A stretch of DNA of 40,480 bases from a virus (IMGVR_UViG_2718218098_000005:1-40480), one strand, 5' to 3'. Shown: positions 22,576 through 25,200, counted from the stretch's first letter. Numbers and translations are program-made. Notes: a model not told the origin generated them from the sequence alone.

Positions 22576-22851
22576 TCACCTCCGGAATGAAAGGATTTTT
22601 GAAACGTTCCCGCGTGCGCGTATTACCAGCACGCAGAACAGCAGATTAAGCCCCACCGCCAGCCAGTTCGCCGCTAACGGGCGACCGCACAGATAGCTGA
22701 GTGGTGCAAAGGCATACAGCAGCATCAGCAGCCAGGCCAGCCATGACATCAGCGGTTTGTGTCTGGAATCACGGCGACGATAAAAAAAGAGCGTCAGCAC
22801 GATAACCGTGCATAACGCTACATTCAGCAATCCGGGAATGTTACTTAACAT
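22576..22851 (-). CDS. Membrane protein (91 aa, 2-3 TM), holin/antiholin-like
   Basis: ATG 22851 with GGAGGAGG 5 nt upstream; hydrophobic segments; between holin-like gene and endolysin. Confidence 0.6.
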   Translation of the reverse strand: MLSNIPGLLNVALCTVIVLTLFFYRRRDSRHKPLMSWLAWLLMLLYAFAPLSYLCGRPLAANWLAVGLNLLFCVLVIRARGNVSKILSFRR

Positions 22852-23233
22852 TGCCGCCTCCTCCACCCCGCAGACGGGAGAACAGGCCGGACACCAGTGA
22901 TGCAATATCCTGCTGGTGGATGAACGAGAGAATCTTCACCGACACCACTGACACCAGCACTGCACACAGTGCGTCGACAGGCGCACCGTCAAACCCTGTA
23001 TGCTTTACCAGCCAGGATGCCAGAACCTCTGCGCCCAGCACGCCGATAATGAACGACACCAGAAAATGCGCCGCCACACGCCAGGCTGAAAGCGCCTGCG
23101 GCATCGTTGCCACAAATAACGCCCCGGCGAACGCACCAAACACAATCCCGAAATCCGTTCCGGTAAACAGCCCGAATACCGTCGCCCCGCCGAGCGCCAC
23201 AGCCGTGCCGGAACCGGATAAGGGTTCAGACAT
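22841..23233 (-). CDS. Putative holin (130 aa, Gly/Ala-rich TM segments)
   Basis: ATG 23233 (MSEPLSG) with AGGAG 8 nt upstream; first gene after terminator; multiple TM segments. Confidence 0.6.
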   Translation of the reverse strand: MSEPLSGSGTAVALGGATVFGLFTGTDFGIVFGAFAGALFVATMPQALSAWRVAAHFLVSFIIGVLGAEVLASWLVKHTGFDGAPVDALCAVLVSVVSVKILSFIHQQDIASLVSGLFSRLRGGGGGNVK

Positions 23234-23250
23234 ACTTTTTTCTCCTGTAA

Positions 23251-23274
23251 ATAAAAAAGGGCCACCAGCGGCCC
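23251..23274 (-). terminator. Intrinsic terminator immediately upstream of lysis genes (tR'-like)
   Basis: Minus strand GGGCCGCTGGTGGCCC followed by TTTTTTATTT, then RBS and holin ATG. Confidence 0.6.
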
Positions 23275-23553
23275 GTAAAAAACACCCCGTCAAAAGCACC
23301 GGCATCCGCAGATGCCCTTTGCGTGGCGTTATTTGATGCGCGCCAGATGTGGCGCAAAGAAATGAAATAAGACTTATCGGAAATTAAGGTTAATTTGAGG
23401 ATTTAAACCACTTCTGAAGCTTAGTAGTATGAACATGTCCCCGGAAGGGGGCCAATACTTATTATTCTTCATGGACTTTGTCCCGCGGTCTTAATCCGAC
23501 GACCGCGCTACTTTTCACCCTCTCGCAAATTGCTATCCAAAGGACGTTGTCCC

Positions 23554-23586
23554 ACGAGTATTCCTGGATGCTCGTGTCTTTTTTTG
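23554..23586 (+). terminator. Plus-strand hairpin + T-run (weak terminator candidate)
   Basis: CACGAG-12 nt-CTCGTG followed by TCTTTTTTTG. Confidence 0.35.
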
Positions 23587-23601
23587 TCCTGAGAAAGGAA
23601 T

Positions 23602-23627
23602 AAAAAAAACCGCCATATCTGGCGGTT
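23602..23627 (-). terminator. Intrinsic terminator within ORF-free region between tRNAs and lysis genes
   Basis: Minus strand AACCGCCAGATATGGCGGTT followed by TTTTTTTT. Confidence 0.55.
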
Positions 23628-23990
23628 GGTCAATGCAAGGGATGAATTTTTTAATTGTTATTAAACCGAGGCGTCGGGTGCCTCCCGAAGTATTCCGTGC
23701 TGTATGGATACTGTGGTTTCCCGCTAAACCGACTCTTTAAACCACCCTCGCTCTGAGGTGCGCCTCTTTGGTGCGATTTACAACACCAGAATGATGCATC
23801 ACCGACCCTGCCAGGAAATACAAAATCTCCACCGATAATGCACCATTCTGCTGTCGTAAAAAAATCAGCACTGAGGCTACACCTGGTCTCAAATCATAGC
23901 CAGAGAACAGAATGCTTTTTCAAAACAACCTGCTCCCACGTAATAAAAAATACGCCAGTGCCGCAATACAATAAGGCTTGTTTCAAATGC

Positions 23991-24065
<75 letters not shown>

Positions 24066-24068
24066 ATA

Positions 24069-24144
<76 letters not shown>

Positions 24145-24146
24145 AC

Positions 24147-24223
24147 TGGACCGCCACCGGGGACTCGAACCTCGCACACTCAACTTAAAGTGTTGACGCT
24201 CTTTCCTGATGAACTAGTAGCGG
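24147..24223 (-). tRNA. tRNA-like, probable anticodon TTT (Lys) with C33
   Basis: Acceptor CCGCTAC/GTGGCGG, 5-bp anticodon stem TCAAC/GTTGA, loop ACTTTAA, T-loop TTCGAGT, CCA encoded. Confidence 0.5.
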
Positions 24224-24224
24224 T

Positions 24225-24300
24225 TGGTGGCCCTGGCTGGATTTGAACCAGCGACCTGGCGATTATGAGTCGCTCGCTCTCACCACTGAGCTAAAGGGCC
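24225..24300 (-). tRNA. tRNA-Ile2-like (anticodon CAT; ileX/ileZ type)
   Basis: Strong similarity by recollection to E. coli ileX; anticodon loop CTCATAA; CCA encoded. Confidence 0.8.
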
Positions 24301-24308
24301 GGCGCAAG

Positions 24309-24337
24309 ATAATAACGTTACGAAATCAATGTAGCAA
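24309..24337 (-). promoter_or_regulatory. Candidate sigma70 promoter for the tRNA cluster
   Basis: Minus strand TTGCTA-17 nt-TATTAT, ending 8 nt before first tRNA. Confidence 0.4.
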
Positions 24338-24413: not shown

Positions 24414-24443
24414 TGGCACAAACAAAACCCGCTTGTGGGCGGG
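24414..24443 (-). terminator. Hairpin + U-rich tail just downstream of Q-like gene (candidate tR')
   Basis: Minus strand AAAACCCGCCCACAAGCGGGTTTTGTTTGTGCC. Confidence 0.5.
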
Positions 24444-24498
24444 TTTTGTTTGCTTTTGCCATCACGTACAAAATCGGCAAAATATCAGATTTGCATGA

Positions 24499-24527
24499 AA
24501 TATATGCCTTTCAATCTACTTTTGCAA
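24499..24527 (-). promoter_or_regulatory. Candidate late promoter overlapping 3' end of Q-like gene
   Basis: Minus strand TTGCAA-17 nt-TATATT; Q stop codon lies between the two hexamers. Confidence 0.4.
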
Positions 24528-25200
24528 CACTTTGCTTTGAAAATACCGCCTTTTGTTTTGAACGTGTTCTCATTACAAACAATAAAGCCTCACTATCCAG
24601 TCGGTGAAAAATGTGTTTCAATGCAACCCAGTGACGAGTAAATGTTTTGGACCAGTTTTTAGTTGTCACTCCCGCCAGTAATGCCAGCTCCTGGTATTCA
24701 TAACCTTCCCCACCAAAAAGTTCTGCTTTTACTGCCTGCGCCGCCAGCCAGATTAATTTTTTCAGGCGTTCCTGCGTTTTCCCTGCAATTTTTCTGGTAC
24801 CGGGTTGAGTATTAAATTCATTCCACGCCCACTGTGTTATCGCGATCTGATATGCCCAACAAATATTCCCGCTGTAACACCACAGCAACCAGGCTTTATG
24901 ATGTTCTTCAAGAGACAGAACAGCCCGCCGCCACGATGATGTCGAAAACTCAACCGGACTGACCAGAGGAATTGACGTCCCCTTCGCCAGCGATTGCTTC
25001 CCCGGGATTGGTGGATTATCCCGCGTTATCATTTTTCCAGTCGCTTCATCGCGGTACCGGATTTTTTTTCGCCTGTAACGCCCTGTATCGAACATGGCAT
25101 TCTCTTGCCAGGCTTCAAGCTGACCTTTTGTTGCCGCACTCAAATCAGCGGTAGCGATAATGAGCTGCTCACGCACAAACTGTAAATACTGGTTATTCAT
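24511..25200 (-). CDS. Putative late antiterminator Q (QuuQ-like)
   Basis: 229 aa; position between rusA and late promoter/lysis region as in Qin; ATGA overlap with rusA stop; family not verified. Confidence 0.55.
   Translation of the reverse strand: MNNQYLQFVREQLIIATADLSAATKGQLEAWQENAMFDTGRYRRKKIRYRDEATGKMITRDNPPIPGKQSLAKGTSIPLVSPVEFSTSSWRRAVLSLEEHHKAWLLWCYSGNICWAYQIAITQWAWNEFNTQPGTRKIAGKTQERLKKLIWLAAQAVKAELFGGEGYEYQELALLAGVTTKNWSKTFTRHWVALKHIFHRLDSEALLFVMRTRSKQKAVFSKQSVAKVD

Follow-up and report, generated by a model that had tools for sequence, protein, structure and literature searches.

A probable phage-82-type late-gene control region, with promoter, pause element and leader terminator, at the end of the Q gene of a lambdoid Escherichia coli prophage

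The question raised by this locus is whether a promoter-like sequence that runs across the stop codon of a Q antiterminator gene is the late promoter of a lambdoid prophage, and whether the terminator-like hairpins that lie between it and the holin gene belong to a single switch. The DNA analyzed, referred to here as the window, is one stretch of 40,480 nucleotides. The results led us to conclude that the locus is, with high probability, the late-gene control region (pR', Q-utilization site and tR') of a phage-82-type lambdoid E. coli prophage. A late-gene switch of this kind is known from textbooks, well studied and very common in E. coli: of 5426 complete E. coli genomes, 1105 (~20%) contained the 131-nt unit.

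The whole window was a lambdoid prophage of E. coli, with 100% identity to strains M6, M9, M11, M15 and M19. The replication-to-lysis genes discussed here are located on the minus strand. A CI-like repressor gene on the plus strand adjoins a Cro/YdaS-like gene and YdaT, an arrangement that constitutes a Rac-type immunity region, and O- and P-like replication genes are found in the early region of the window. The gene order was DUF968-RusA-Q-[pR']-tRNAs-holin-holin-endolysin. In RefSeq, the strain M19 locus has no annotation for any of the late promoter, pause site, leader RNA or three terminators. The elements from Q to the leader terminator, all on the minus strand, were as follows.

24511 to 25200, minus strand: Q gene, 229 amino acids, ATG at 25200, stop codon TGA at 24513-24511
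24522 to 24527, minus strand: -35 hexamer TTGCAA, within the Q codons Ala-Lys
24505 to 24521, minus strand: 17-nt spacer, which contains the Q stop codon TGA (24513-24511); expected position of the Q-binding element (QBE)
24499 to 24504, minus strand: -10 hexamer TATATT
24490 to 24492, minus strand: predicted transcription start AAA, +1 = A24492, 7 nt after the -10 hexamer
24467 to 24487, minus strand: predicted sigma70-dependent pause element, with TG at +6/+7, TATTTT at +9 to +14 (24484-24479), GCC at +15 to +17 (24478-24476) and the pause at U+25/A+26 (24468/24467)
24420 to 24492, minus strand: predicted leader RNA of ~73 nt, 6S/IsrJ-like, made without Q
24454 to 24482, minus strand: leader hairpin 1 (UUUUGCC ... 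GGCAAAA, +11 to +39), of uncertain status, present in the MFE fold of the leader
24417 to 24450, minus strand: T1, the predicted intrinsic terminator of the leader (tR' equivalent), stem-loop at 24443-24428 plus U-tract

The Q protein belonged to Pfam family PF06323 (Phage_antiter_Q, E 4e-90), was 75% identical over the full 229 amino acids to the Q protein of phage 82 (X92588), and is named 'bacteriophage antitermination protein Q' in RefSeq. A PDB sequence search with Q found no solved structure of a phage-82-type Q, the sole match (E 0.006) being spurious. The single phage 82 record retrieved, X92588, is authentic phage 82 DNA and extends no further than the stop codon of Q. Within it, TTGCAAAA, which comprises the -35 hexamer plus AA, was likewise present at the Q stop. 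The final Q codons and spacer read AACTGGATTAA in phage 82 compared with AAGTAGATTGA in the window, and 8 of the 11 spacer bases contained in X92588 were identical. The promoter thus adjoins and overlaps the 3' end of a phage-82-family Q gene, as in an 82-type pR'.

The sequence-only reading that drew attention to the locus had described a near-consensus TTGCAA-17-TATATT promoter straddling the Q stop codon on the minus strand. The position and layout were borne out: sigma70-type hexamers at 24527-24522 and 24504-24499 are separated by a 17-nt spacer with the stop codon inside it, and the hexamers were conserved across genera. The term near-consensus was too generous, since the hexamers matched the consensus at only 9 of 12 positions and such sites occurred at chance level, nine being found in the surrounding 8 kb compared with 7.6 ± 2.7 expected from shuffled sequences. 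The hexamers being at chance frequency, the promoter call is not significant by itself; the promoter is real from its context and not from the bare consensus match.

Much of that context was provided by conservation among relatives. Ten BLAST-derived loci from phages of four genera, E. coli (including phage 434), Klebsiella, Enterobacter and Salmonella, were aligned. Pairwise identity was 100% for TTGCAAAA, 90% for the -10 hexamer, 82% for +1 to +14, 71% for the adjoining Q coding sequence, 68% for the spacer (24519-24505, 4 of 15 columns invariant) and 44% for +18 to +40. TTGCAAAA was invariant in all ten relatives while the final Q codons differed (VD, LD or PN before the stop), so the constraint on this element is not a coding constraint. 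The core of the pause element, TGnTATnnT, comprises the positions that matter for sigma region 2 and was also invariant in all ten. The -35 element and TGnTATnnT remained unchanged from E. coli to Klebsiella, Enterobacter and Salmonella although the identity of Q dropped to 41-60%, and the promoter and pause core were the most conserved stretch across the relatives.

A 46-nt degenerate pattern of the invariant positions occurred once in the window, where none was expected, although the pattern was built from an alignment that included the window, so that the count does not test it independently. When viral contigs were scanned for the pattern, 105 unique loci were obtained, in which conservation inside the pattern is so by construction and only the position relative to Q and the downstream terminators are independent. 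An ORF for a Q of the phage 82 type, 41-100% identical, ended at the motif in 101 of them, and a hairpin followed by a T-run was present in 91, ending at +49 to +94 (median +72) except for two that ended at +203. The leader terminators had kept their position, with sequences that were non-homologous between leader classes, and phage 434 has an annotated terminator at the place equivalent to T1.

A second motif overlaps the late-promoter -35 element on the opposite strand. The plus strand at 24522-24535 has the sequence TTGC-N6-TTGC, the consensus of the lambda CII box, which corresponds to paQ in the phage 434 record. The repeat was kept in the E. coli relatives and absent from those of Klebsiella and Enterobacter. 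No match to a lambda CII family was found among the ten early-region ORFs scanned, and the position of cII is occupied by YdaT. On these grounds CII/paQ was rejected as the cause of the invariance of TTGCAAAA.

Wells et al. 2016 (PMC4914094) located the QBE of 82 pR' between the -35 and -10 elements, inside the interval -31 to +30. By analogy with this position, the putative QBE of the window is the spacer that holds the Q stop codon. Transcription from 82 pR' begins with AAA, and stuttering at the AAA start has been mentioned for that promoter (Bird et al. 2016, PMC5001585). The AAA at 24492-24490 was assigned as the start site. The Rfam isrJ consensus, which derives from an RNA mapped by primer extension, begins 3 nt upstream of A24492, at UGUAAAUCUG, and stuttering at the AAA may account for this offset from the phage 82 +1.

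In 82 pR' the pause element consists of an extended -10-like sequence at +9 to +14, a GCC 'discriminator' at +15 to +17, AT-rich sequence from +18 to +25 with G at +24, a paused RNA that ends at U+25, and a base other than G at +26 (PMC5001585). From 24492 the window reads AAATCTGATATTTTGCCGATTTTGTA. All of the descriptors given by Bird et al. 2016 are reproduced, A being the base at +26, where the comparison with 82 pR' downstream of the Q stop is with descriptors in the text and not a base-by-base alignment. The extended -10-like sequence at +9 to +14, the GCC at +15 to +17 and the U+25 are recognized here from sequence, and the predicted pause element is the diagnostic feature of an 82-type pR'. 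The earlier reading had correctly placed the promoter and terminators and had overlooked two features, this element (+6 to +25) and the part of the spacer expected to bind Q. Its assignment of the promoter as a late promoter was strengthened by the 82-type Q, the position-by-position match to the 82 pR' pause site, the conserved promoter and pause core, and the IsrJ homologues described below.

The predicted leader RNA folded at -31.5 kcal/mol with a z-score of -5.4 relative to shuffles. T1 spans +43 to about +73 from the predicted start, so the hairpin terminator that had been claimed 3' of the promoter was present, its distance of about 60 nt being approximate. The GC stem is CCCGC/GCGGG (24443-24439 / 24432-24428) with a 6-nt loop, an A-tract upstream and a UUUUGUUUGUG tract downstream. 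The extended hairpin had a folding energy of -23.6 kcal/mol (z -6.0 vs shuffles) and the GC stem alone -8.5 kcal/mol. T1 has the GC stem-loop and U-tract of an intrinsic terminator, with a stem of only 5 bp followed by UUUUGUUU; its termination efficiency is uncertain because the 5-bp GC stem is worth -8.5 kcal/mol and the U-tract is interrupted by a G. A terminator scan of the region did not pick up T1, probably because extension of the stem uses up the U-tract. Among the window (24417-24427) and the near-identical prophages L010, L042, L047 and L081 the U-tract of T1 varied, reading TTTTGTTTG, TTTTGTTG, TTTTTTTG and TTTTTTG, which suggests homopolymer slippage that could tune leader termination.

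The 5' arm of hairpin 1 coincides with the last part of the pause element (+11 to +17). A hairpin was found at the equivalent place in other leader classes (AUGCUGCC/GGCGGCAU and GUCG/CGAC) and in the Rfam isrJ consensus structure, and was absent from phage 434-type short leaders. RNAalifold applied to the MAFFT alignment gave no consensus for hairpin 1 because the arms are in different registers between classes. The complementarity of the arms compared with shuffles was nominal, p being about 0.05 for class A and about 0.015 for class C, and was not significant for class B, in which the fold z-scores were weak as well.

The features downstream of the leader terminator, all on the minus strand, were as follows.

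24309 to 24337, minus strand: promoter-like site TTGCTA-17-TATTAT, GC-rich discriminator, immediately 5' of the first tRNA
23991 to 24300, minus strand: four tRNA-like genes identified by ARAGORN, with CAT, an odd TTT, TGT and TCC anticodons
23600 to 23627, minus strand: T2, terminator-like hairpin AACCGCC..GGCGGTT, 8 bp, then T8 (-12.7 kcal/mol, z -4.7)
23249 to 23274, minus strand: T3, terminator-like hairpin GGGCC/GGCCC, 5 bp, then T6 (-10.8 kcal/mol, z -1.8)
22841 to 23233, minus strand: putative holin, first late gene (Pfam Phage_holin_8; RefSeq annotation)
3' of the first holin, minus strand: second holin, then M15 endolysin (Pfam Phage_holin_3_7 and Peptidase_M15_4; RefSeq)

Two further terminators had been claimed before the holin, and terminator-like sites were indeed present at 23627-23608 and 23274-23259. 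Both T2 and T3 have the GC-rich stem-loop of an intrinsic terminator followed by U8 and U6, respectively, and T3 lies 16 nt before the ribosome-binding site of the holin, which starts at 23233. Terminator-like sites were enriched in the region as a whole (16 compared with 8.1 ± 3.1 expected). A plus-strand terminator-like hairpin at 23553-23576 is convergent with T2, and a sub-threshold sroB-like match (31 bits) was observed at 23600-23689. The stretch of about 750 nt between the tRNAs and the holin (23240-23990) was devoid of a convincing ORF.

The Rfam tRNA scores of the island were 64.7, 33.3, 54.8 and 65.6 bits. Two of the tRNA-like genes were irregular, the 'Lys-TTT' gene, which scored 33 bits and has C at position 33, and the 'Thr-TGT' gene, in which the anticodon stem is poorly paired; they are located at 24147-24223 and 24069-24144 on the minus strand, and RefSeq lists only tRNA-Ile and tRNA-Gly in strain M19. 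The promoter-like site at 24309-24337 showed almost no variation in PPompW and Stx2c phage 1717; the record of the latter annotates its Q as resembling the Q proteins of O157:H7 Stx phages. In the Stx2 phage of strain Sakai, a start site that drives the tRNAs was mapped downstream of tR' (Sy et al. 2020, PMC7547250). The tRNA island with its own promoter is probably a self-contained module, of which T2 may be the terminator. Since the island appears to have its own conserved promoter, the tRNAs need not depend on Q. The proposal that a Q-dependent switch has to read through three terminators plus the tRNA island was supported by homology as regards the switch and probably has to be relaxed as regards the tRNAs.

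A mechanism can be proposed in which the anatomy, homology, conservation and folds were computed here, and the pausing at +25, the loading of Q and the effect of NusA are taken from the phage 82 literature. The sigma70 holoenzyme would initiate constitutively at A24492 from the TTGCAA-17-TATATT promoter that overlaps the final Q codons. The sigma70 still bound to the polymerase would then re-bind the TG-extended -10-like TATTTT at +9 to +14, and the complex, by analogy with phage 82, would scrunch and pause at U+25 (24468). Without Q, the polymerase would escape and terminate at T1 around +73 (24420), giving a short structured leader RNA that would be the equivalent of lambda 6S RNA, StxS and Salmonella IsrJ. 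Once Q had accumulated, it would bind the promoter spacer and load, together with NusA, on the paused complex to give a terminator-resistant polymerase, as in phage 82, and the modified polymerase would be expected to pass T1, the tRNA module, T2 and T3 and to transcribe the holin, endolysin and morphogenesis genes. In line with this, Sy et al. 2020 (PMC7547250) state that pR' is constantly on, with termination during lysogeny, and that the late promoters of phages 21, phi80, 82 and P22 give rise to short RNAs.

The Rfam search of the window yielded only tRNAs above threshold. Sub-threshold matches at 24418-24522 to OrzO-P, the Thr/Phe leader, isrK, isrJ and STnc370 were set aside as candidates, the alignments shown being mostly terminator-driven. 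The leader of the window scored 20.5 bits at 24423-24495 against isrJ (RF01393, threshold 37) and is a relative of the isrJ family but not a member by the Rfam criterion. The class B leaders of relatives matched isrJ at 57-102 bits, and the leaders of the Klebsiella/Enterobacter class at 57-73 bits, exactly from start site to terminator. The first bases of the isrJ consensus are UGUAAAUCUGAUAU. In Salmonella, IsrJ is 74 nt long; its 5' end was determined by primer extension (PMC2330248), and it was highly transcribed in lysogens under all conditions tested. The Rfam isrJ family corresponds to the leader of phage-82-type late promoters, a correspondence that is useful for annotation and for sRNA biology.

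In a Gifsy-1-like viral contig (L017, 662-2491), isrJ (101.7 bits) follows an intact 82-type late promoter and immediately precedes the holin, while the PF06323 Q gene (antQ) is about 1 kb away; L015, L054 and L115 are probably alike. The module inserted between antQ and isrJ in L017 carries isrK, an ORF6N antirepressor and a C4 antisense RNA of the P1 type together with its a1/b1 targets. The 'virulence sRNA' IsrJ thus appears to be the leader of the Gifsy-1 late operon, moved about 1 kb from antQ by a c4/antirepressor insertion, and no statement to this effect was found in the literature examined. If this is true, the phenotypes of IsrJ and the biology of AntQ would be tied to one promoter.

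Two alternatives differ from the late-promoter interpretation in what they take the transcribed unit to be. The hexamers could be fortuitous, with the hairpin at 24450-24417 merely ending the delayed-early operon after Q and the late genes driven from elsewhere. Matches at 9 of 12 positions are indeed found at chance frequency, the hairpin is 61 nt past the Q stop with A- and U-tracts that would also halt transcripts coming from Q, and other promoter-like sites, such as that at 24337-24309, occur downstream. However, conservation of the non-coding sequence from -10 to +17 exceeded that of the coding part of Q, the sequence agreed with the descriptors of the 82 pR' pause site, the homologous promoter that lies ~1 kb from Q in the Gifsy-1-like locus still precedes isrJ, and IsrJ was expressed on a plasmid from its own promoter (PMC2330248), so that we regard this explanation as very improbable. 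Alternatively, the unit may be primarily an sRNA gene whose ~73-nt RNA targets host or phage mRNAs in trans in the lysogen, the link to late control being secondary. The leaders of relatives fall in the Rfam isrJ family, an 'Hfq binding RNA', invasion and the translocation of effectors were reduced in a Salmonella isrJ mutant (PMC2330248), Stx phages have a pR' leader, StxS, that functions as a regulatory sRNA (PMC7547250), and the leader of the window is structured (z -5.4) with an A-rich linker, AAAAGCAAACAAAA, before the U-tailed terminator. Against this, the isrJ score is below threshold and the leader diverges from isrJ after +14, the most conserved elements are the promoter and pause element at the level of DNA and not the body of the RNA, and the leader bodies have been replaced wholesale between classes. 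A unit that is primarily an sRNA gene is accordingly considered unlikely. A trans-acting role is compatible with the late-promoter interpretation, to which it would be an added function; that the leader is a constitutive trans-acting small RNA like StxS or IsrJ, beyond a by-product of late control, is likewise doubtful.

The remaining alternative concerns the terminators, which may be boundaries of modules (T1 of pR', T2 of the tRNA/moron unit and T3 of the lysis cassette) that were never designed as a cascade and are all ignored by the Q-modified polymerase. We find this view the more plausible one for the terminators, if not strongly so: the promoter-like site upstream of the tRNAs is common to an Stx2c phage with a Q annotated as Stx-phage-like (O157:H7), the tRNA start site was mapped in the Sakai Stx2 phage (PMC7547250), and the content between Q and the holin was highly variable among relatives, including tRNAs, TerB, DUF3927, IS elements and toxins. 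In addition, the 750-nt pre-holin stretch was shared with only two phage records (88-91%), one of them the LT-IIb prophage fragment SerU-LTIIb. Module boundaries refine the late-promoter interpretation rather than replace it. Beyond annotation, where it places a late promoter, pause site, leader RNA and three terminators and suggests that a tRNA island located after pR' comes with a promoter of its own, the locus matters little, and the concept of Q antitermination is unchanged by either the isrJ-leader equivalence or the promoter of the tRNA island.

The pR'/6S/tR' region of lambda shares the logic of the late-gene control region described here, namely a constitutive late promoter, a sigma70-dependent promoter-proximal pause, loading of Q at a QBE between the -35 and -10 elements and a short terminated leader. 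The two differ in the family of Q, in the position of the pause, +16/17 in lambda compared with +25 in the 82 type, and in the length of the leader, 194 nt in lambda compared with about 73 nt here, and lambda Q is not known to overlap its promoter. As in the pR'/StxS/tR' region of Stx phages, a short leader RNA is predicted in lysogeny, and the interval from tR' to the late genes contains tRNA genes with a probable promoter of their own; the promoter segments next to the tRNAs are homologous. However, the Stx leader is 258 nt long and is processed to 74 nt, the Q of the Stx2c phage compared is annotated as O157:H7 Stx-phage-like, and this prophage lacks a toxin gene at this location.

Salmonella Gifsy-1 IsrJ (RF01393) resembles the leader of the window in that the promoter and about the first 14 bases of the transcript are homologous (UGUAAAUCUGAUAU), in its length (74 nt compared with about 73 nt) and in a two-hairpin layout that ends with an intrinsic terminator shortly before the holin or late genes. 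In contrast, the leader of the window is of a different class after +14, and in the Gifsy-1-like locus the promoter is parted from Q by the inserted c4/antirepressor module. Phage 82 differs from this prophage, which has a Rac-like immunity region (YdaS/YdaT) and a tRNA island before the lysis genes. Nevertheless, the window shares with phage 82 pR' a PF06323 Q (75% identity), TTGCAAAA overlapping the Q stop codon, a predicted AAA start, a TG-extended -10-like element at +9 to +14, GCC at +15 to +17, G+24 and U+25, and a predicted intrinsic terminator within 100 nt.
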